Source of the DNA: an uncultured Gammaproteobacteria bacterium
GTDB taxonomy: Bacteria > Patescibacteriota > Microgenomatia > Levybacterales > GWA1-39-11
Reading direction: 5' to 3'
Assembly: GCA_964537315.1 (NCBI GenBank)
Contig: CAZIAP010000003.1
Span: 75,919 to 139,918, forward strand
Length of the DNA: 64,000 nt
Both the position numbers and the translations under genes were made by a program. Positions within the stretch are counted from its first letter, which is position 1, and each line of letters begins with the position of its first letter. The notes beneath the pieces were generated by a model, which made no database searches, was not told where the DNA came from, and worked only from the letters and a program-made list of their open reading frames with translations. Below, piece after piece: positions 1,337 to 61,421 of this stretch.

Positions 1337-1912
1337 ATGGATGAGCAGACGACTGCTTTCCTTAAAAATTACGGCCTCATTATTCTCCTTGCTGTGGCAG
1401 GCATCGCTTTTTTTGGCTTCGGTATACTTCAACTTCAACAACCTGACACACCTGTTATAGTTGCCGATGATCAGGACTCAACTGAGTCTGGAGAAATAGT
1501 GATTGATGTTGGTGGAGCTGTCTTAGAGCCTGGTGTATATAGCCTACCTGCCTCCTCGCGGATAGCAGACGCACTCACTCGAGCTGGAGGAATAACCGAT
1601 GAAGCAGATACAGTGTATATTTCCAAGACAATAAATAGGGCACAGCCTCTTCAGGATGGCCAGAAAGTATATATTCCTCGAAAATCAGAAGTCGTTAGCT
1701 CTACCCAGTTAAAGCCGGAACAAACTTCCGGGCTGATTAATATCAATACGGCGAGTTCATCAGAGTTAGATACCCTTCCCGGTGTAGGGCCTGTAACCTC
1801 AGAAAAAATAATTACTAATAGGCCATATACAAAAGTAGAAGATCTAGTTGATAAAAAAGTCGTATCTGAGTCAGTTTTTGAAAAGCTGCGTGAACAGATA
1901 ACGGTATACTAA
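1337..1912 (+). CDS. comEA: competence protein ComEA (membrane-anchored helix-hairpin-helix DNA-binding protein)
   Basis: N-terminal TM segment (LIILLAVAGIAFFGFGI). C-terminal tandem HhH motif INTASSSELDTLPGVGPVTSEKII. Start taken at the internal ATG at 1337; the track ORF starts at 1265. Confidence 0.8.
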   Translation: MDEQTTAFLKNYGLIILLAVAGIAFFGFGILQLQQPDTPVIVADDQDSTESGEIVIDVGGAVLEPGVYSLPASSRIADALTRAGGITDEADTVYISKTINRAQPLQDGQKVYIPRKSEVVSSTQLKPEQTSGLININTASSSELDTLPGVGPVTSEKIITNRPYTKVEDLVDKKVVSESVFEKLREQITVY

Positions 1913-1913
1913 G

Positions 1914-3140
1914 ATGAAACAACTTCTTGCTGTTGGATTTTTTTTAGTCCTGATTTTAGGTATCAGATTATATCTCCACTCAGTTCATCCTGCTAAATAT
2001 CAGCCCAATACTCATGTTGAAATTACTGGAATTATCTGGAATGAGCCACAAAGATATGGTCAGATACAGAAGGTGAAAGTGGATGATGTAGTGTTCGTCT
2101 TGCCTGAATACCCAAGGTATGAGTATGGACAAAAACTTAGTTTATCAGGAATTTTAGAAGAAAATACTTTTACTAGCAAAAGTGGAGAAGAGGTCACAGA
2201 GTTAGTTGTTAATAATCCTGAGATTCGTAAGGTTTCTACACCAATCATAATTGGACAAGCTGCATGGATGAGATCTCGCATTATCACAGTATTAACACGA
2301 GTGCTGCCTGTGGATGAAGCCGCTCTTTTACTAGGTGTGACCCTTGGTGTGCGAACTGAGTTCAGCGATGAGTTGCTCGATACCTTTACTCAGACGGGCA
2401 TCTTGCATGTAGTCGCAGCCTCAGGAAGTAACGTGGCTATAGTTGCAGGAGTCATGCTTTTTAGCCTTGAGAGAGTAACAAAGCGTAAGATCTCGATCCT
2501 GAGTACAGGGGCTGCTATCCTATGGTATGCCTTACTTGCTGGATTTGATCCTGCAATTATTCGAGCAAGCTTAATGGCGGTTATTGCCTTGACAGCACAG
2601 TTACTTGGTCGTCAGCGTATCTCTTATTTTATTTTACTACTTACTATATGGATAATGGTCATGGTAAGTCCAGATATCTGGAAAAATGTAGGATTTTTAC
2701 TTTCTGTATCTGCAACAGGTGGAATTATTACGTTAAAACCTTACTTTGATCATTTGTTCAGACGAGCAGGGTTTATTAAAGATGATTTGGGTACAACAAT
2801 CGCCGCTCAGTGGGGAAGTCTTCCGATTCTCGTTGGGACTTTTGGAAACTTTGCTCCTTTGTCCTTAATAGTAAACCTAGCGGTCTTATGGGTTGTGCCA
2901 TTAATTATGATACTTGGTTTATTATCTTCATTTGGAGCAATCATCTACCCAAGCCTCGCAATGCCATTTGCTTATATGGCATATCCTTTTTTATTTTTCT
3001 TTCTAGCAGTAGTCAAGGCGTCGTCCTATTTTGTTGAATCAATTTCAATCATAAAATTATCGCCACTGATATCTATATCATACTATTTCATTTCTATATC
3101 AATTATTCTATATCTAAAGCTAAATCATGTCAAAAGTTAA
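1914..3140 (+). CDS. comEC: ComEC/Rec2 N-terminal part (DUF4131-like OB region plus polytopic competence domain)
   Basis: Competence-domain signature GILHVVAASGSNVAIVAGVMLF and many TM helices. The ORF ends 14 nt inside the next ORF. Confidence 0.8.
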   Translation: MKQLLAVGFFLVLILGIRLYLHSVHPAKYQPNTHVEITGIIWNEPQRYGQIQKVKVDDVVFVLPEYPRYEYGQKLSLSGILEENTFTSKSGEEVTELVVNNPEIRKVSTPIIIGQAAWMRSRIITVLTRVLPVDEAALLLGVTLGVRTEFSDELLDTFTQTGILHVVAASGSNVAIVAGVMLFSLERVTKRKISILSTGAAILWYALLAGFDPAIIRASLMAVIALTAQLLGRQRISYFILLLTIWIMVMVSPDIWKNVGFLLSVSATGGIITLKPYFDHLFRRAGFIKDDLGTTIAAQWGSLPILVGTFGNFAPLSLIVNLAVLWVVPLIMILGLLSSFGAIIYPSLAMPFAYMAYPFLFFFLAVVKASSYFVESISIIKLSPLISISYYFISISIILYLKLNHVKS

Positions 3141-4032
3141 GCTGTGTATAGTATTAGGGTTTTTGTTGTTATTAATCCTTGCCACGTCACAATTACAGAA
3201 AAGTTTTGATGGCAAGCTGCACGTAGTGATATGCGATGTTGGCCAAGGAGATGCTATTTTTATTAGAACACCAGCCGGAAAGGAAATGATCATTGATGGA
3301 GGACCTGATGAATCTGTTTTAAGCTGTTTAGATGAATATAGACCTTTCTGGGATCGATCGTTAGATGTGATGGTGCTCACTCATCCTCATTATGATCATT
3401 TCAGAGGACTAATTGATGTATTGGATCGGTATGCTGTTAGATTGATACTCCAGGAACCAATAGATAATACTTCTGAGGCATATAAAGTGTTTACTCAAGC
3501 AGCTGAGAATGAGAAGTCTAACCTAAAGACCTCCACAAAAGGAACAACTATTATATTTGCTGATGGAGTAGAATTAAAAGTACTCGGACCTGATCAGGCA
3601 TTTCTCAGTAAGGAGAACCCAAGAGGCATTATAGGCAATGATAATCCGCCGTCACTCATTATGCATCTTTCATATAACTCATTTGATTTGTTACTAACTG
3701 GTGACAGTGATGGTCAAGATCTAGAAAGGTTTGTGCCTGCAGGACTATCAATAGATGCGTTAGTACTTCCTCATCATGGATCTAAAAATGGATATACACC
3801 TGCTGCTTCTAAGTATATTATACCAATAATTGGTATAATTTCTGCGGGTAAAGATAATTCATATGGTCACCCTCATCAGTCAGTACTCACAGAGTTACAA
3901 AAACATAACTCAGTTGTGCTGCGCACAGATTTGCAAGGCAATATCCATTTAATTATAGATAAAAACGGCAATATTTTTATCTCACCGGAGTCTAAGAGTT
4001 ATTCACCTATTGCAATTTTTCAATCTCAGTGA
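3127..4032 (+). CDS. comEC: ComEC C-terminal metallo-beta-lactamase domain protein (separate ORF)
   Basis: MBL motifs HVVICDVGQGDAIFI, VLTHPHYDHFRGL and LPHHGS. Own N-terminal hydrophobic anchor (LCIVLGFLLLLILATS). Overlaps the upstream ORF by 14 nt in a different frame. Confidence 0.8.
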   Translation: MSKVKLCIVLGFLLLLILATSQLQKSFDGKLHVVICDVGQGDAIFIRTPAGKEMIIDGGPDESVLSCLDEYRPFWDRSLDVMVLTHPHYDHFRGLIDVLDRYAVRLILQEPIDNTSEAYKVFTQAAENEKSNLKTSTKGTTIIFADGVELKVLGPDQAFLSKENPRGIIGNDNPPSLIMHLSYNSFDLLLTGDSDGQDLERFVPAGLSIDALVLPHHGSKNGYTPAASKYIIPIIGIISAGKDNSYGHPHQSVLTELQKHNSVVLRTDLQGNIHLIIDKNGNIFISPESKSYSPIAIFQSQ

Positions 4033-4067: not shown

Positions 4068-4430
4068 ATGAAAATTCTTATAGTAGATGATGAAGTAGAG
4101 CTTGCGCAAGTTTTTGACGCTGCTCTCCGTGGCGCTGGTTATGAAGTTAAAATAGCCACTAATGGTAAAAGCGCGCTAGATATGGCAAAAGCAGAGCAGT
4201 TTGATCTGATAATGCTAGATCAGATGATGCCTGACATGTCAGGAAATGAAGTATTAAAAGCCTTGAAGGCAGATCCTGCTACTGCTACTTTTAAAGTTGC
4301 AATGCTTACAAACTTTGGTCACGATGAGATGGTGAAAGAGGCTCTCTTTGCCGGTGCAGTAGATTATATTCTCAAATATCAGGTATCAGGCGATGACATT
4401 GTTACAAAAGTAAAAAGTCTTATTGGCTAG
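4068..4430 (+). CDS. response regulator, receiver domain only (CheY-like)
   Basis: MKILIVDDE...D...LIMLDQMMPDMSG...K receiver motifs. No output domain (120 aa). Confidence 0.8.
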   Translation: MKILIVDDEVELAQVFDAALRGAGYEVKIATNGKSALDMAKAEQFDLIMLDQMMPDMSGNEVLKALKADPATATFKVAMLTNFGHDEMVKEALFAGAVDYILKYQVSGDDIVTKVKSLIG

Positions 4431-4725
4431 CATGCTTCAAACATCACAAACTGATTATAAAAGTATCCTCTCCGAATTTTTACAGCATCAGATTACTATT
4501 TTTGGTCCACAAGCTGTGAGTAACAAGATATCAGACGTCAAGGGTTTAGTCTTTGACAAGGATGGAGTAGTGAAAGATATCTTGGGAGATCCGCATACGG
4601 TCTTGCAAGAGGTTGCAGCTAAACTTGAATCTCTCTCAGAGTATGCAGTAAAGACTTCATTTGATCGTATACTTGCTGCACACTCTGCTGAAAATCCTCC
4701 GCCAGTATCAAACGTCTCACTCTAG
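4423..4725 (+). CDS. hypothetical protein (100 aa) between response regulator and kinase
   Basis: ORF overlaps the stop of the receiver gene by 8 nt (translational coupling). No motif recognised. Confidence 0.5.
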   Translation: MASMLQTSQTDYKSILSEFLQHQITIFGPQAVSNKISDVKGLVFDKDGVVKDILGDPHTVLQEVAAKLESLSEYAVKTSFDRILAAHSAENPPPVSNVSL

Positions 4726-4783
4726 AACAGTCTGGATCAAAAACTTGACACACGTCAGGATTTAAGGTTGCATATAAGTAGGT

Positions 4784-6523
4784 ATGGAAATTACCATAAT
4801 CGTTTTAGGCTTACTATTCTTCTCAAGCATCATCCTCTCTGGTGTGGTTATTCATCTATTACGCCGTGATGATCAAAAGAAAGCAGAGTTGGGTCTTCAA
4901 AAAAGAGAAGCGACTCGTAAGTTTTACGAAGCCAAAGTACTACAGGAAATTTCAGAACAAATAGGATATTCCTTGACAGGGAAGTCGGTCGCAGAAACTA
5001 TCATACGTTCCTTTGAAAATTTGTATGGTGTCTCTTGTGTTACATATGTGCTGATCGAAAATCATTCGATAATTCAAAAATCAGTCTTAAAAGAAGCTAT
5101 TGGTCAAAAGTATGTCGACAAGATACATCAAGTATCACTTAACTCGCTGTATGCTTTGGAAGAACCAGTTAAAGGATATCATGTTGCTGTACAAGTTCAA
5201 CAGAGCAAAGAGATAAAAAGCTATATTGCTTTACATTTTGATCCACTTCCTCAGTCATACTTTACAGTACCTTTAGTTATAAATAATACTTGTGTAGGGG
5301 TAATTACTGTTTCTTCTCGACTGCGGGATGCATTTTCTAAAGAGGACATGGATATGGTATACAAAGTAGTTAAACAAGCAGTAAAAGCGACAGAGCGAAT
5401 GGAGAGTCTTATTCAGGCTGAAAACAGCAGAATGATTAACCTAGTTTCCAGTATTCCTACCCCTGCAATTTTATTTGTAAAAGAAGGCAATAGGCTTAAA
5501 ATATCTGCCGCAAACCCAATTGCGACAGAGATCCTCAAGCTCCCTGCAAATCCATCTATTGATGATATCGTATGGAGTGTTGAGGGGAACTTAGATCTGC
5601 ATAAGCTGATCGAAGAAGTATATGAAGGGGGTAAGAGCGTCTTTTTGAAAGAGGTAGCTTTGAAAAACCGTTACTACAAAGTTTATATCAATCCAGTGTA
5701 TACGATTACCCAGGACTCAGTTGTAGGGGCAACACTGTCCCTACTTGACGTAACGTTAGAAATGGAGTCAGAGAAGCTAAGGGAGAAGTTTACCAATATG
5801 GTAGTACACGAACTGAGAGCTCCAATGACCTCTATAAAGGGAGGTGCAGGACTGTTATTAAAGGGTACGTTGTCTAAAGAGGATACTGAAAAAATGCTTC
5901 ATATTATCTCTGATTCCTCAGAGCGTATGTTGACACAGATTAATGATCTCCTTGATGCTGCAAAACTTGAAGCTGGTAAATTTGCTATCGCACCTGCGCG
6001 GGCAAATATTAATGAAATAGTTCAGACAAAAGTGGATAGCTTTTCATACCTCGCGTCCACTAAGCAGATTACTCTTACATGTGAACTAGATAAGTCAATT
6101 GAAGAGTTTAATTTTGATAAGATGCGAATTGATCAGGTAATCACCAATTTGATATCAAACAGTCTGAAGTTCACTCAAACTAACGGTCACATTACGATCA
6201 AAACTGAGAATAAAAACAATGAAGTGGTAGTATCTGTAGTGGATGATGGAATGGGAGTTCCTGCAGGAAAACAAAATCTGTTATTTGTACCTTTCAGTCA
6301 GATGCAGAGCGCGTTTAGAAGAGATGGTTCAGGACTTGGATTATATATCTCAAGAGGAATTATAGAGTCACACGGAGGTAAAATTTGGATGAATTCCCAA
6401 GAAGGTAAAGGTACAACTGTAAGCTTTTCTATTCCTACAAACATAAAACCTGACTCAGAATCACTGACTCCACCGCACGTTCCTTCACAGCCCATTATGC
6501 CACGGGAAAAAGTAGTGAACTGA
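4784..6523 (+). CDS. sensor histidine kinase (one TM helix, sensor region, HisKA + HATPase_c)
   Basis: H-box HELRAPMTSIKGG. N/G boxes DDGMGVPAGK and GSGLGLYISRGIIESHGGKIWMNSQEGKGTTVSF. Confidence 0.85.
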   Translation: MEITIIVLGLLFFSSIILSGVVIHLLRRDDQKKAELGLQKREATRKFYEAKVLQEISEQIGYSLTGKSVAETIIRSFENLYGVSCVTYVLIENHSIIQKSVLKEAIGQKYVDKIHQVSLNSLYALEEPVKGYHVAVQVQQSKEIKSYIALHFDPLPQSYFTVPLVINNTCVGVITVSSRLRDAFSKEDMDMVYKVVKQAVKATERMESLIQAENSRMINLVSSIPTPAILFVKEGNRLKISAANPIATEILKLPANPSIDDIVWSVEGNLDLHKLIEEVYEGGKSVFLKEVALKNRYYKVYINPVYTITQDSVVGATLSLLDVTLEMESEKLREKFTNMVVHELRAPMTSIKGGAGLLLKGTLSKEDTEKMLHIISDSSERMLTQINDLLDAAKLEAGKFAIAPARANINEIVQTKVDSFSYLASTKQITLTCELDKSIEEFNFDKMRIDQVITNLISNSLKFTQTNGHITIKTENKNNEVVVSVVDDGMGVPAGKQNLLFVPFSQMQSAFRRDGSGLGLYISRGIIESHGGKIWMNSQEGKGTTVSFSIPTNIKPDSESLTPPHVPSQPIMPREKVVN

Positions 6524-22791: not shown

Positions 22792-23541
22792 TTACCTACA
22801 AAGTGAGTTACAAGCTATGCCGTCATTATTACCATCAAGATTTTTGCATCCACACTGGTTTAACTGGAATGTTGCTTCTGCGCACGTTGTAATGACTGAG
22901 CATGTTTTGCTGCAATCACATGTAAACGAAGAAGGGGAAGAAGGAGAGGATGAAGAAGATGTTTGACACGATCCCCACAGGCCAATATTTTTTTCTCTTG
23001 CTTGTTGCTCAAGTGTATCAAGTTGATCCTGGTATTTGATGTCAGGAGGATAAGCAGAGGAGTGAGCATAACCTTCACGAACGAGCATTTCATTTACCAT
23101 TTCTCCGCTTTGAAGATACACATATCGTAATAACCTGCCGTATCTATCCGTATCTGAAACATCTTTTTCCAAATATACTGTTTTTCCGGTCACTAGAATT
23201 TTATTATAATCGCTTGCCTCTTTCCCAAAGCACTGTACAGGTCGCCTGGGATCTACAGTTTCAGGTGTGTCTATACCTATATATCTGAGTGTTCTACCAT
23301 CTGTGAGTTTTATTGTGTCTCCATCTACGACTGAGGCTATGGACACTTCTTCAAGATTCTTTTCTCCCAGTACTGTTTGTGATAGGTCGTTATTAGCTTG
23401 AGTGGGTTTAGAGGAACTTGTAGGTGTAGGTAGGGCGTTCGTAAGTAATTCTGGATTTGTCTGTAGCTTATTATGGGTAAGAGTACTGATAGTGATCAGT
23501 AGGCTTGCAATAATCAGCAAAAAAGGTAGTTTTTTTATCAT
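22792..23541 (-). CDS. secreted thermonuclease (SNase-like) with C-terminal Cys-rich Excalibur-like Ca-binding domain
   Basis: Signal/TM at N-terminus. SNase motifs VVDGDTIKLTDGRTLRYIGIDTPE...RYGRLLRYVY...EMLVREGYA. Tail ...CGCKNLDGNNDGIACNSLC resembles the Excalibur DxDxDGxxCE motif. Confidence 0.8.
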   Translation of the reverse strand: MIKKLPFLLIIASLLITISTLTHNKLQTNPELLTNALPTPTSSSKPTQANNDLSQTVLGEKNLEEVSIASVVDGDTIKLTDGRTLRYIGIDTPETVDPRRPVQCFGKEASDYNKILVTGKTVYLEKDVSDTDRYGRLLRYVYLQSGEMVNEMLVREGYAHSSAYPPDIKYQDQLDTLEQQAREKNIGLWGSCQTSSSSSPSSPSSFTCDCSKTCSVITTCAEATFQLNQCGCKNLDGNNDGIACNSLCR

Positions 23542-49304: not shown

Positions 49305-50039
49305 TTACTGTTGAGGGCGGTTAGGAATAGTAGCCACGTTTACTTCTACAGGGGCAGGTTTCCAATATGCACCTTGTTCAAGAATCTGAATCGAGTCTCC
49401 AACTTCTTGTGCAGATATAAATCCTCCTCCATTTGGAGCCTCTGGGTTTGGTTCTCCTGTAACAAATCCTTCTGTTTGAGGACTAAAGTTAACATAAGCT
49501 ACAACTTTATCATCTCGTCCAAAAGTGTCATCTACTACTAGATTTATTCGTAGCCATCTATCTCCATCTCCGTTAGCACGTTCGACATCTTCTCCTTTTA
49601 CCAAGACAGGGTTAGTAATGTCTACCCATTCAGAACCCTGAAGGTCAACTCCATTAATGGACTTGATTTTATCCGTGGGTATAGTTTCTCCGACCACTCT
49701 TCGGTTATCAATAAGCCGATCAGTTGTAGTGGGACGTTTTCTGATGTTTAGCTTGTTTTTTTGTAGAGTCTTTTCATCTTGTAGCTCGCCTAAATACAAT
49801 GTTACATTTCCTAGAAATATTTCAGATACAGGAGGATGATCTTCTATGCTTTCTCGTGCTTCAGCGCTAGATATAGGAGTTGAATCAGTATCTATTCTTT
49901 TTGATACTTCTTGCGTTCCTTTAAAACCTAATGCTACAGCTGCTGCTCCACCTAATCCCTTTAAAAATGTACGGCGGCTAATTTGTTTAGATTCTTGTTT
50001 TGGTTTCTCTTGCGAGGGGCCTTCGCCAAATTCTGACAT
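49305..50039 (-). CDS. secreted hypothetical protein with twin-arginine (Tat) signal peptide
   Basis: SRRTFLKGLGGAAAVALGF matches the S/T-RRxFLK Tat motif. Start set at the ATG at 50039; the track ORF begins at a TTG at 50108. Confidence 0.55.
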   Translation of the reverse strand: MSEFGEGPSQEKPKQESKQISRRTFLKGLGGAAAVALGFKGTQEVSKRIDTDSTPISSAEARESIEDHPPVSEIFLGNVTLYLGELQDEKTLQKNKLNIRKRPTTTDRLIDNRRVVGETIPTDKIKSINGVDLQGSEWVDITNPVLVKGEDVERANGDGDRWLRINLVVDDTFGRDDKVVAYVNFSPQTEGFVTGEPNPEAPNGGGFISAQEVGDSIQILEQGAYWKPAPVEVNVATIPNRPQQ

Positions 50040-50115
50040 AAAGCTATTGTGTATTAATGAAACAAGAATGTCAAGAATATTTGTAGTAAGGATCGGAAAT
50101 CCGTACAATATAACT

Positions 50116-50850
50116 ATGCATCGTCGTGAAATTATTAGGTTTTTAGCGTTCAGAACGCTTGGAAATTTTTTTATTTTGCTTACTCTTTATGGATTTTTTG
50201 CCACATTTGGTCCTGCAGTATATTACGAGGCAGTCTTTAAAATATCCAAGTTTAGGGGAGTAGAGTATGCAGTTGCGGAAACGACGGGAACCCGCACATT
50301 CGCAGATGTATTGGAGGAAAACAGAGGGTCTGTTCACCACGTTTCAGACTCCAGCCAAGGTCTTGCTAGTTCTGTTCTGAACGGGAATAAAAATCAGTTT
50401 CTAATGCCGAAGGATAAGAGATTTTCTTTACTGATCCCTAAAATCGGTGCAAGTGAGAAAGTGCATGAAAATGTAGATCCTTCAGATCAAGTTGCCTATA
50501 GCTCTGTCTTGAGAAATGGTGTGGCACATGCACAAGGAACGTCGTTCCCAGGCTATGGTGGGAACACGTATATCTTCGCCCACAGTACGGACAACTTTTG
50601 GAATGTAGGCAGGTATAATGCAGTTTTTTATCTATTAAAAGAGCTACAGCCGGGCGATGACATTACAGTAATTTTCATGGACGAAAGATTTGATTATGTA
50701 GTAACAGAGACTAAAGTTGTTGATGCAGATAATCTAGATTATTTAAGAGCAGATATAGGTCAAGGGGAGGTTTTGACACTTCAAACCTGTTGGCCACCAG
50801 GTACGACGTGGAAAAGGCTTTTAGTTTTAGCAAAACCAAAAGAGTTATAA
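50116..50850 (+). CDS. sortase family transpeptidase
   Basis: N-terminal TM anchor, catalytic His region (YIFAHS) and TLQTCWP active-site Cys motif. Start set at the ATG at 50116 to avoid the antisense overlap with the upstream gene. Confidence 0.75.
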   Translation: MHRREIIRFLAFRTLGNFFILLTLYGFFATFGPAVYYEAVFKISKFRGVEYAVAETTGTRTFADVLEENRGSVHHVSDSSQGLASSVLNGNKNQFLMPKDKRFSLLIPKIGASEKVHENVDPSDQVAYSSVLRNGVAHAQGTSFPGYGGNTYIFAHSTDNFWNVGRYNAVFYLLKELQPGDDITVIFMDERFDYVVTETKVVDADNLDYLRADIGQGEVLTLQTCWPPGTTWKRLLVLAKPKEL

Positions 50851-53822: not shown

Positions 53823-54590
53823 ATGCGCAAAAAACTTCTTATTGGACTTGCAATTAGCGTACTCATCTCACTTATATTAGTAGTCACTCGTAATACGTCA
53901 GCCTCATTATATTTTCAAGGAATTGTCCAGCAGTTGTTTCACTCACCTAAAGCCTCACTTTATCATTTTTCAGTCTCATCTGATCCAGAAAAAGAGTCTG
54001 ATCGTTTACGCGAAGAAAATGCGCAGTTAAGAGCAAAGCTTTCAGAAATGCAAAATCTAAAAAGAGATAATGATGCATTGAGGTCACAGTTTGAAGGAGA
54101 GTCAGTTGAGCTTAATTCGTTACTCCCAGCACAAGTTTTAGGTTTTCAAGGATCTATAACAAATCCTGAAGCTCTAATCATAGACAGAGGAGCAAATGAC
54201 AATGTCAGAAAAGGACAAGCAGTTGTGATTGGAAAAAATATAGTCGGTATTATTGATACGGTAAGTGAACGGTATAGTTCTATAGTAGTCGTAACTAGCG
54301 CATCTTTTTCTACAGTGGCAAAAACTTCAGAAAACTCAGTGTTAGGTGTAATTAGAGGCGCTGGGGACTTTTTACTGTTTAATCAAGTCGCAATCACCGA
54401 TACACTTGAAGAAGGAGATACGGTTCTTACCAGAGGAACTATATCAACATCAGGAACTGGTGTGCCTCCGGATTTAATAATAGGAAAGGTCGAAACTGTG
54501 CGAAAAGTTGAGTCAGAGCCATTTCAAAGTGCAAAGGTTGAAAGTTTGTTAGATATTTCCCGTCTCACTAGAGTTTTTGTTGTACGCTGA
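53823..54590 (+). CDS. mreC: rod shape-determining protein MreC
   Basis: N-terminal TM, coiled coil (LRAKLSEMQNLKRDNDALRSQ), then MreC beta-domain motifs (VVIGKNIVGIIDTV...). Confidence 0.85.
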   Translation: MRKKLLIGLAISVLISLILVVTRNTSASLYFQGIVQQLFHSPKASLYHFSVSSDPEKESDRLREENAQLRAKLSEMQNLKRDNDALRSQFEGESVELNSLLPAQVLGFQGSITNPEALIIDRGANDNVRKGQAVVIGKNIVGIIDTVSERYSSIVVVTSASFSTVAKTSENSVLGVIRGAGDFLLFNQVAITDTLEEGDTVLTRGTISTSGTGVPPDLIIGKVETVRKVESEPFQSAKVESLLDISRLTRVFVVR

Positions 54591-60326: not shown

Positions 60327-61421
60327 ATGTCCGAGTCTGAATACTATCTCAGATTTTCATACGCTCCAGGAATCGGCCCTAAACGTTTTCTATTACTTTT
60401 AAGTTATTTTAAGACCGCTGAAAAAGCTTGGAAAGGGACTGCGACCGAGTATAAAAGTATTGGCATAACAGGTAAAACTTATGAAGCATTTGATATATTC
60501 CGTCAACACTTTGATTACTCGAAAATTCAAAGTGCATTGAAAGTGAAAGGCATAAAATATATTTCCCAACATGATGAAATATACCCTAAAAGTCTTTTAA
60601 AGCTTTCGAATCCTCCTATTGGACTTTTTGCTAAAGGAGAGATAACTTTACTGAAAGAAGAGCTTATTGTTGCAGTTGTAGGTAGTAGAAAAATGACCTC
60701 ATATGGAAACCAAGTTTCACAATTATTTGTGGAAGAGCTGGTAAGAGCTGGAGCAGTAATTATTTCAGGGTTAGCAATGGGAATTGATGCGGCAGCGCAT
60801 AGTGCTGCACTTGAGAGCAATGGAAAGACGATTGCTGTACTAGGAAACGGAGTAAACGTGCCATACCCACAAGAGAACTTTTCGCTTTATGAAAAAATAT
60901 TAAGCTCAAATAACCTTATAATTTCCGAGTACCCTCCAGATATATCACCTACAAAAGGAAGTTTCCCGGCTCGCAACCGAATTATTGCGGCTTTGAGCCG
61001 TGCAGTTCTGATTCCTGAGGCTGTAAAAGACAGTGGATCATTAATCACTGCAACCAATGCAATTGAGCTGGGTATACCTATATTTGCAGTTCCCGGCCAG
61101 ATCACATCTCAGCAATCACAAGGAACATCGTACTTGATTCAGAATGGTGCAAAGTTAGTTATTGAACCCGAAGATATATTGAAGAGTTTTGATTTGTCTG
61201 GAAAGTCTACATCTAGAAGAAAATTGTTATTAGAGAAGCTGAGTATTTCACAAGATGCAAAGAAGGTGCTGGAATTATTACTTCAAGAACCGATGAGCGT
61301 GGATACATTGAGTAAAAAAAACATGATGGAAGTTACTGAGGTATCAAGGATTATAACGTTGCTTGAATTGCAAGGATATGTAAAGGATAGTGGTAATGGA
61401 AAATTCGTCGCAGATATATAG
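60327..61421 (+). CDS. dprA: DNA-processing protein DprA (Smf)
   Basis: Rossmann-like core VAVVGSRKMTSYG...ISGLAMGIDAAAH...AVLGNGV and a C-terminal winged-helix-like tail. Confidence 0.85.
   Translation: MSESEYYLRFSYAPGIGPKRFLLLLSYFKTAEKAWKGTATEYKSIGITGKTYEAFDIFRQHFDYSKIQSALKVKGIKYISQHDEIYPKSLLKLSNPPIGLFAKGEITLLKEELIVAVVGSRKMTSYGNQVSQLFVEELVRAGAVIISGLAMGIDAAAHSAALESNGKTIAVLGNGVNVPYPQENFSLYEKILSSNNLIISEYPPDISPTKGSFPARNRIIAALSRAVLIPEAVKDSGSLITATNAIELGIPIFAVPGQITSQQSQGTSYLIQNGAKLVIEPEDILKSFDLSGKSTSRRKLLLEKLSISQDAKKVLELLLQEPMSVDTLSKKNMMEVTEVSRIITLLELQGYVKDSGNGKFVADI

Follow-up and report, generated by a model that had tools for sequence, protein, structure and literature searches.

The window, a 64,000-nt stretch of DNA, carries two overlapping genes on the forward strand whose products match the two halves of ComEC. 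They lie directly downstream of comEA, and the following features were assigned:

1337..1912, + strand: comEA (DNA receptor), with PF10531 (SLBB), PF12836 (HHH_3) and TIGR01259 (comE)
1914..3140, + strand: ORF1, ComEC channel half, 408 aa, ATG start, TAA stop at 3138-3140
1917..1985, + strand: single N-terminal transmembrane helix of ORF1, residues 2-24 (helix in the AF2 model)
2013..2234, + strand: OB-like beta-barrel of ORF1, residues 34-107, predicted extracytoplasmic (strands in the AF2 model)
2340..3119, + strand: Competence (channel) domain, PF03772, residues 143-402 of ORF1, aligning to 30bt_A residues 200-490
3063..3134, + strand: last ORF1 helix, residues 384-407, equivalent to TM10 (AF2 and 30bt alignment; topology from PMC13539106)
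3127..3140, + strand: 14-nt overlap ATGTCAAAAGTTAA, holding the ORF2 start codon (3127-3129) and the ORF1 stop codon (3138-3140); presumed termination-reinitiation coupling site
3127..4032, + strand: ORF2, ComEC nuclease half (signal-anchor helix plus metallo-beta-lactamase domain), 301 aa, ATG start
3130..3204, + strand: N-terminal transmembrane anchor of ORF2, residues 2-26 (MSKVK followed by LCIVLGFLLLLILATSQL), equivalent to TM11 (AF2 helix, pLDDT about 95; 30bt alignment)
3217..3984, + strand: metallo-beta-lactamase (MBL) nuclease domain, ORF2 residues 31-286 (AF2 pLDDT 93)
3382..3399, + strand: HxHxDH metal-binding motif, H86-P-H-Y-D90-H91 (read off the sequence)

The coordinates, the +1 frame of ORF2 relative to ORF1 and the overlap of exactly 14 nt all bear out the preliminary description of this DNA, in which ComEC was encoded as two overlapping ORFs in different frames. 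The ORF2 frame is closed by a stop at 3121-3123. Therefore, ATG 3127 is the sole start 5' of the hydrophobic helix, in agreement with the proposal that ORF2 has its own ATG and N-terminal hydrophobic segment, which AlphaFold models as the helix of residues 2-26. Any hypothetical frameshift joining the two ORFs would be confined to positions 3124-3137. The neighbouring genes are likewise as described before: comEA contains the SLBB and HHH_3 domains and ends 1 nt before the ATG of ORF1, dprA is located at 60327-61421, and the secreted nuclease, an SNase-type protein with an N-terminal hydrophobic segment, is encoded at 22792-23541. While the mechanical ORF of comEA begins with GTG 1265, the true start is likely ATG 1337, judging from the resulting length of 191 aa (orthologs, 189-196 aa).

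ORF1 matches the Competence family PF03772 with residues 143-402 (E 4.7e-45; 154.5 bits at a cut-off of 23 bits) and TIGR00361 at positions 106-363. Its AF2 model consists of a TM helix, a beta-barrel and a helical bundle, and the last helix is followed by the basic tail KLNHVKS. The modelled barrel is likely an OB fold, and an ORF1 ortholog profile, when aligned to the solved ComEC 30bt, matches its OB region (30bt residue 143 on) with residue 69 onward. We keep this assignment at 'likely' because ORF1 gave no Pfam match to DUF4131 (PF13567) at E<=0.01 and Foldseek returned only weak matches of the barrel to SSB OB folds (E about 1e-2, TMt about 0.5). That the model matched only SSB proteins is explained by the Foldseek PDB library, which is older than the full-length ComEC entries. 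Of the earlier label 'DUF4131-like', the OB-like barrel is retained, but the missing Pfam match and the presence of one preceding TM helix instead of three do not agree with it.

[quoted passage not shown] Judged by these scores, the domain matches of both ORFs are far beyond chance. Residues H86, D90, H91, D193, H216, H217 and H248 are invariant across 46 standalone MBL homologs, at least 90% of which also keep H88. ORF2 also contains two invariant cysteines. The sequence of the TM anchor is poorly conserved among homologs; this is compatible with a simple anchor and equally with a specific docking helix.

We then compared the two halves with full-length ComEC, using a virtual fusion in which ORF1 and ORF2 were joined by deleting one A in silico. 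This results in a seamless in-frame protein of 705 aa, residues 111-679 of which align in one HMMER stretch to residues 200-784 of 30bt_A (E 4.7e-59). The junction faces an Arg-rich segment between two hydrophobic helices, and this alignment places the break in the cytoplasmic loop that connects TM10 to TM11, the last transmembrane helix. According to the cryo-EM structure determined for canonical ComEC, a cytoplasmic helix is located between TM10 and TM11, while TM11 itself is peripheral and mobile and is connected to the MBL domain by a flexible linker (PMC13539106). Since the loop precedes such a helix and linker, cutting the chain at this position should cost little structurally. ComEC/Rec2 as described by TIGR00361 is a single polypeptide of ~700-800 aa; here, there are two ORFs in different frames, which score 65.0 bits (ORF1) and 85.9 bits (ORF2), both below the equivalog cut-off of 190.05 bits.

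The split is not restricted to the window. Our survey included 80 species-representative loci of Levybacteria-type Patescibacteria (candidate phyla radiation, CPR). The gene is split with an MBL gene downstream in 69 of them, and fused ComEC is found in only three, the most distant ones. No MBL gene is present within 3 kb of the Competence gene in 10 of the 80 loci. The gene order at syntenic loci is comEA, Competence, MBL, and the split is shared even by relatives with only about 30% identity. Among ORF1 homologs, the 12 nearest (37-100% identity) have 397-418 aa and are without exception Competence-only, and the best 120 ORF2 homologs all comprise 186-335 aa (282-335 aa except for one fragment). 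In every one of the 69 split loci, ORF2 begins with M-[KR][KR] followed by a hydrophobic helix. The dN/dS values of 0.07-0.26 determined for both genes (10 pairs) indicate that both halves are under purifying selection. In a crude neighbour-joining tree of the MBL domains, the window nuclease falls into a pure standalone clade of 95 representatives; the remaining 44 standalone and 37 fused domains are interleaved, and this tree is too coarse for counting fission events. The comparison with related genomes therefore favors the genuinely split ComEC that had been proposed as one option: 69 of 80 species-level relatives are split, starts, stops and N-terminal helices are intact, selection is purifying, and there is no close ortholog with an uninterrupted ComEC.

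The junctions themselves are diverse. A 4-nt overlap (ATGA/TTGA/GTGA) was found in 40 of the 69 split loci, a 14-nt overlap and a 1-nt gap in five each, and the others have overlaps of 8-26 nt or gaps of 2-36 nt; overlaps of 4-26 nt are thus seen in 55 loci and gaps of 1-2 nt in six. All three frame relations occur (44/22/3), so that the majority of relatives would need a -1 shift and some a +1 shift for fusion, while three are in frame behind a stop. An ORF of 247 aa is inserted between the Competence and MBL genes in one locus (L023), and another (L036) has an extra interruption inside ORF1 and a gap of 64 nt to ORF2. The closest relative (L093, junction ATGCACAGCGTTAA) and L007 (junction ATGAACAAGGGTAA) lack an A-run; as in the window, the overlaps of L001 and L004 contain A-runs. 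Of the overlap sequence, nothing but the ATG and the TAA is invariant within the subclade with 14-nt overlaps. In the window, no SD-like motif precedes ORF2, and among relatives such a motif was found in 18 of 63 loci, compared to a background of 18%. The downstream start overlaps or abuts the upstream stop, as is typical for coupled gene pairs, and this layout is conserved among orthologs. Because the window lacks an SD-like motif and most relatives show ATGA-type overlaps, translation of ORF2 is probably coupled to that of ORF1.

Taken together, these comparisons suggest, with a probability of roughly 0.8, a genuine gene fission of old evolutionary origin, by which comEC became two neighbouring genes and which is characteristic of Levybacteria-like Patescibacteria. 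ORF1 and ORF2 are probably coupled in translation, and their products probably come together again in the membrane. ORF1 would be the DNA channel: its single TM helix would be followed by an OB-like barrel that binds DNA outside the cytoplasm and by the Competence domain up to the TM10-equivalent helix, and its chain would end in a short basic cytoplasmic tail. Ribosomes terminating at TAA 3138-3140 could re-initiate at ATG 3127 to produce ORF2, in which the TM11-equivalent helix would serve as an N-in signal anchor for an extracytoplasmic metallo-beta-lactamase nuclease. The two polypeptides would then form a ComEC-like unit in the membrane, which together with ComEA, DprA and pili could bind dsDNA; its MBL nuclease would degrade one strand and the channel thread the other. 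Since 10 of the 80 loci lack an MBL gene within 3 kb of the Competence gene and another gene is inserted in one locus, a tight link, be it physical or translational, is not obligatory. In some lineages, the nuclease may thus not be required or may function on its own.

The latter loci could also be read as a sign of functional uncoupling, in which ORF1 is an MBL-less channel resembling H. pylori ComEC and ORF2 an independent membrane-anchored surface DNase that serves mainly in nucleotide scavenging, outside any ComEC complex. The weakly conserved anchor helix of ORF2 would be in line with this explanation. Moreover, nucleotide scavenging from DNA is assumed for CPR bacteria (PMC6744442), and S. 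pneumoniae degrades the strand with a separate nuclease, EndA (PMC8579336). But the MBL gene is adjacent to, and usually overlaps, the channel gene in 69 of 80 loci across deep divergence, the break point is the exact TM10/TM11 boundary of the fused protein, and the MBL fold kept by ORF2 is specific to ComEC and not generic. We therefore regard uncoupling as rather unlikely. An equally tentative idea is that the ComEC nuclease, once released by fission, could work on its own as a DNase anchored in the membrane at the cell surface. In nucleotide-auxotrophic CPR cells, it would serve mainly to degrade bulk DNA for nucleotide scavenging, with channel association being optional. If so, amount and presence of the nuclease could evolve independently of the channel, as hinted at by the 10 of 80 genomes in which the MBL gene is absent or lies apart from the channel gene.

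Programmed +1 ribosomal frameshifting on C-AAA-AGT, which would produce a full-length fused ComEC alone or beside the separate products, is very improbable. tRNA-Lys could re-pair from AAA 3132-3134 to AAA 3133-3135, and the A-runs in the overlaps of L001 and L004 would be compatible with such a mechanism. However, no slippery motif is conserved even inside the 14-nt subclade, relatives need different shifts or have both genes in one frame with a stop between them, their two genes can be up to 36 nt apart or separated by an inserted gene, and the ORF2 frame of the window is open for just one codon 5' of its ATG. A gene of the prfB/dnaX type with a programmed frameshift was also considered and rejected, as the junction sequences differ and the frame relations are 44/22/3.

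A recent frameshift mutation that inactivated comEC in this genome is hardly credible. Disrupted comEC is common in other bacteria, for example in P. salmonis, and the additional interruption inside ORF1 of L036 could point in the same direction; against this, the split extends to relatives of about 30% identity, both halves show the low dN/dS values given above with invariant catalytic residues, and the start codon and the basic/hydrophobic N-terminus are kept in every ORF2. Equally far-fetched is an erroneous additional A in the run AAAA (3132-3135), by which a single comEC of 705 aa would be split, since, although homopolymers are error-prone and removal of one A restores a seamless fusion, a four-base run is short for such an error, 69 independently assembled species-level genomes share this break point together with an ATG and a stop of its own, L093 and L007 have no A-run at all, and both exact proteins are in the database from two sources, NCBI and Logan. 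A layout conserved across dozens of Levybacteria-type genomes is therefore neither a sequencing error nor a dead gene. None of the frameshift alternatives named in the preliminary description (error, pseudogenisation or slippage at CAAAAGT) could be maintained, given the lack of a close uninterrupted ortholog and the A-run missing from these two relatives: the break is not private to one genome, and the fragments show no relaxed selection. Among relatives, neither half evolves neutrally (dN/dS about 1) or carries scattered stops.

Comparative studies score ComEC by the domain content of single proteins and have arrived at the conclusion that the nuclease domain is 'lacking' in CPR bacteria and in about half of the ComECs overall. 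Judged from gene neighbourhoods, the nuclease of the Levybacteria-like lineage is not lost but is the next gene. Annotation that takes gene neighbourhoods into account is needed to infer how these organisms process incoming DNA. The position of the natural break is also relevant to structural models in which a fixed domain topology of ComEC ensures degradation of only one strand; a conserved two-chain ComEC would imply that covalent tethering is not essential. In addition, it offers a ready design for split-ComEC experiments with separate expression of nuclease and channel. The practical impact is modest. What varies is the architecture of a machine already known, and no new mechanism is involved.

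Literature searches for split comEC, ComEC in Levybacteria and ComEC gene fission did not retrieve a description of this arrangement, and term searches in Pimentel & Zhang 2018 and Baker 2016 turned up neither a split nor an adjacent partner gene. According to Meheust et al. [quoted passage not shown] ORF1 is exactly the unfused kind of CPR ComEC described there, whereas the nuclease here and in 69 of 80 relatives is separately encoded and not lost. Compared to the canonical single-chain ComEC/Rec2 (B. subtilis; N. carbonis cryo-EM, PDB 32ks/30bt/30bu, PMC13539106), the domain order of (here likely) OB fold, Competence channel, TM helix and MBL is the same, as are the HxHxDH nuclease site and the presence of comEA and dprA in the genome. 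In contrast, the present system has two chains (408 + 301 aa), with the break in the cytoplasmic loop between TM10 and TM11, and one TM helix precedes the OB-like barrel instead of the three before the canonical OB fold (PMC13539106). The system resembles the short ComEC of the H. pylori type (ComE3) in having one N-terminal TM helix and in lacking an MBL domain within the channel protein. H. pylori is not known to have an adjacent ComEC-type MBL partner gene, whereas the present system keeps its partner gene next to the channel gene. A single N-terminal TM helix has been predicted for H. pylori ComEC (PMC13539106). A further difference is seen to EndA of S. pneumoniae, as ORF2 corresponds to the MBL domain of ComEC itself. 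EndA has an unrelated nuclease fold, and its gene is not known to lie beside comEC. It sets a precedent for a separate membrane-associated, strand-degrading nuclease that works in trans with the channel (PMC8579336). Finally, the gene pair is similar to ATGA/TAATG termination-reinitiation pairs in that the downstream start overlaps or abuts the upstream stop, but differs from them by the 14-nt overlap of the window, which is a subclade-specific variant.

The preliminary description had placed ComEC in two ORFs that overlap by 14 nt and lie in different frames, and our analysis confirmed this arrangement. ORF1, the channel half with the Competence domain, and ORF2, the nuclease half with the metallo-beta-lactamase (MBL) domain, share the 14 nt ATGTCAAAAGTTAA, and the frame of ORF2 is +1 relative to that of ORF1. 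The following features were assigned in the window:

1914..3140, + strand: ORF1, 408 aa
3127..4032, + strand: ORF2, 301 aa
4068-4430: REC-only response regulator, directly downstream of the split comEC
4423-4725: 100-aa ORF, no Pfam match
4784-6523: HisKA/HATPase histidine kinase
22792-23541, - strand: SNase-family nuclease with N-terminal hydrophobic segment (Pfam)
49846-50850, + strand: sortase (Pfam)
53823-54590, + strand: MreC (Pfam)
60327-61421, + strand: DprA (Pfam)
14609, 15914, 18057, 18159, 28898, 46200 and 47847: seven tRNA genes (Rfam)

Since a stop codon occupies 3121-3123 in the frame of ORF2, the ATG at 3127 is the sole start before its hydrophobic helix (residues 2-26 of the AlphaFold model); the MBL ORF thus has its own start and N-terminal hydrophobic segment, as first described. 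Only the interval 3124-3137 could hold a putative frameshift. Removal of one A from the AAAA run (3132-3135) creates a seamless 705-aa fusion, and the alternative raised initially, a single gene split by sequencing error, pseudogenisation or slippage at CAAAAGT, was therefore reasonable a priori.

Orthologs with an uninterrupted ComEC and identical flanks had been named as evidence against a genuine split, but searches with the virtual fusion (ORF1 and ORF2 joined in silico) retrieved no such close homolog: the 12 closest channel-half homologs (37-100% identity) were all Competence-only proteins of 397-418 aa, and fused ComECs appeared only from ~30% identity. The best 120 matches of ORF2 (38-64% identity, several source-named Levybacteria or Patescibacteria) were likewise all short, 119 with 282-335 aa and one a 186-aa fragment. 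We then parsed 80 loci by script, taking one genome per GTDB species. A separate MBL ORF follows the Competence ORF in 69 non-redundant loci; ten Competence loci have no MBL within 3 kb, and only three, the most distant, encode a fused ComEC. Usable taxon names in the titles were mostly Levyibacteriota/Levybacteria, Microgenomates and 'Patescibacteria group', with one WWE3. In the wider ORF2 family (1845 representatives at 50% clustering, E<=1e-30), 139 of the best 150 are shorter than 400 aa, eight are of fused ComEC length (797-845 aa) and three are oddities of 508, 512 and 721 aa; a crude NJ tree places the window MBL inside a clade of 95 representatives that are all standalone. The 721-aa protein (P0255) differs in architecture: it carries a ComEC-type MBL N-terminally (residues 43-287) plus another matched stretch, suggesting either MBL duplication or fusion with something else. 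Many species-representative TPA assemblies with Levybacteria-like com loci (L010, L013-L017 and others) are titled 'uncultured Gammaproteobacteria bacterium isolate SRP..._co...', which looks like a placeholder or wrong taxonomy; L010 and L001 are one contig; the L001 locus shows 60% identity with conserved synteny.

The junction DNA is not conserved among the 69 split loci. A 4-nt overlap (ATGA/TTGA/GTGA) occurs in 40 of them, the 14-nt overlap in five, which form the subclade of the window itself, and a 1-nt gap in another five; the others have overlaps of 8, 11, 17, 19, 23 or 26 nt or gaps of 2-36 nt. Frame relations are distributed 44/22/3, so that all three occur. When a conserved overlap sequence was looked for, only the ATG and TAA proved invariant even within the 14-nt subclade, and the overlaps of the closest relative (L093, 61% identity; ATGCACAGCGTTAA) and of locus L007 (ATGAACAAGGGTAA) contain no A-run. 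In every ORF2, M-[K/R]-[K/R] leads into a hydrophobic helix. Together with the junction variety across the 69 loci, this excludes an assembly indel, a pseudogenising mutation private to one genome, and a conserved site of programmed frameshifting. At locus L023 a 247-aa ORF of unknown family (4279-5022) is inserted between the two genes, showing that the pair is separable. In the Patescibacteria MAG locus L036 (2989-4218), the channel gene is broken within the OB region into ORFs of 67 and 323 aa, and the MBL gene starts 64 nt further on; the break may reflect either genuine pseudogenisation or a misassembly of that genome. For both genes, dN/dS was 0.07-0.26 (Nei-Gojobori, ten locus pairs, dS from 0.03 up to saturation). 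The split comEC is thus a real, conserved architecture typical of a CPR lineage, as the first of the two initial readings had it.

Two conserved genes under purifying selection jointly rebuild the ComEC modules, probably including the OB fold. ORF1 contains PF03772 (Competence, E 4.7e-45) and matches positions 106-363 of TIGR00361 (ComEC/Rec2); ORF2 contains PF00753 and matches positions 419-663. The halves score 65 and 86 bits against this model, below its cut-off of 190 bits, so that formally the split ComEC does not count as a single-polypeptide ComEC. The 'DUF4131-like' label given to the first part of ORF1 held only in part: Pfam DUF4131 was not found in ORF1, but its AlphaFold model (pLDDT 76.8) has a single N-terminal TM helix (residues 2-24), then a beta-barrel (34-107) weakly resembling SSB OB folds, and a helical bundle up to helix 384-407; from residue 69 on, the ortholog profile aligns with the OB region of the solved ComEC structure. 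[quoted passage not shown] Across 46 standalone MBLs (36-62% identity to ORF2), H86, D90 and H91 of the HxHxDH motif are invariant and H88 is present in at least 90%; D193, H216, H217 and H248 are likewise invariant, as are C36 and C67 (window 3232-3234 and 3325-3327), a candidate extracytoplasmic disulfide.

The orthologous contigs share the order (leuS) - comEA - Competence ORF - MBL ORF - response regulator - unknown - histidine kinase. Three of three arbitrarily picked standalone MBLs have a Competence gene directly upstream; leuS and comEA lie upstream in L090 and L091, and the L092 contig is too short to tell. The comEA reported directly upstream in the window was found (SLBB and HHH_3), as were dprA and an SNase-type nuclease elsewhere. 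Mechanically called, comEA spans 1265-1912 (GTG start 1265, 215 aa); its orthologs have 189-196 aa, and the start is likely the ATG at 1337 (MDEQTT...). Its stop (1910-1912) lies 1 nt before the ORF1 ATG, so that comEA, channel and nuclease genes are packed end to end. Further upstream, a 271-aa ORF without Pfam family (369-1184) takes the position of leuS in the orthologous loci fetched, and local synteny differs accordingly. The downstream trio (4068-6523), perhaps a regulatory module tied to the com genes, recurs behind the MBL gene in L001, L005, L007 and L009. L093 and L094 have at least its regulator there, and L090 and L091 lack the trio.

No SD-like motif precedes ORF2 in the window, and among 63 loci only 18 carry one versus an 18% background, from which we infer that ORF2 translation is coupled to ORF1 through termination-reinitiation; the comEA-ORF1 spacing is similarly tight. 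The two membrane proteins would reassemble, and the complex would degrade one DNA strand and import the other, as canonical ComEC does. It is rather unlikely that the nuclease is instead an independent surface DNase, a reading for which the ten loci with an unlinked or absent MBL and the weakly conserved anchor helix of ORF2 leave room. The split ComEC probably works like ComEC.

ComEC orthologs without OB and/or MBL domain are on record in Pimentel & Zhang (2018) and in subsequent work on ComEC. Meheust et al. (2019; PMC6744442) detected ComEC in 86% of CPR genomes and described its MBL fusion as 'essentially absent in CPR'. Our literature searches, and term searches in these papers, returned no statement of an MBL encoded by a gene adjoining ComEC. 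In the databases each piece has its own label ('ComEC/Rec2 family competence protein' and 'MBL fold metallo-hydrolase'), with JGI sometimes naming the standalone MBL 'competence protein ComEC'. The split comEC corrects the impression that the ComEC nuclease is missing from these organisms, and its natural split point bears on current structural models.

Cryo-EM models of N. carbonis ComEC are available (30bt, 30bu, 32ks; PMC13539106). Residues 111-679 of the virtual fusion align as a single stretch with residues 200-784 of full-length ComEC (30bt_A; E 4.7e-59), and the window junction (…YLKLNHVKS-stop / MSKVKLCIVLGF…) lies opposite an Arg-rich segment separating two hydrophobic helices. In PMC13539106, ComEC is described as having 11 TM helices, with TM10 and TM11 at the periphery and a short cytoplasmic helix lying between them; TM11 is missing in the map of one protomer, and a flexible linker joins the MBL domain. 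ORF1 would accordingly extend past its counterpart of TM10 into a basic cytoplasmic tail, and ORF2 would start with a basic N-terminus and use the TM11 equivalent as signal anchor, leaving the nuclease outside the membrane. This predicted topology agrees with that of fused ComEC.
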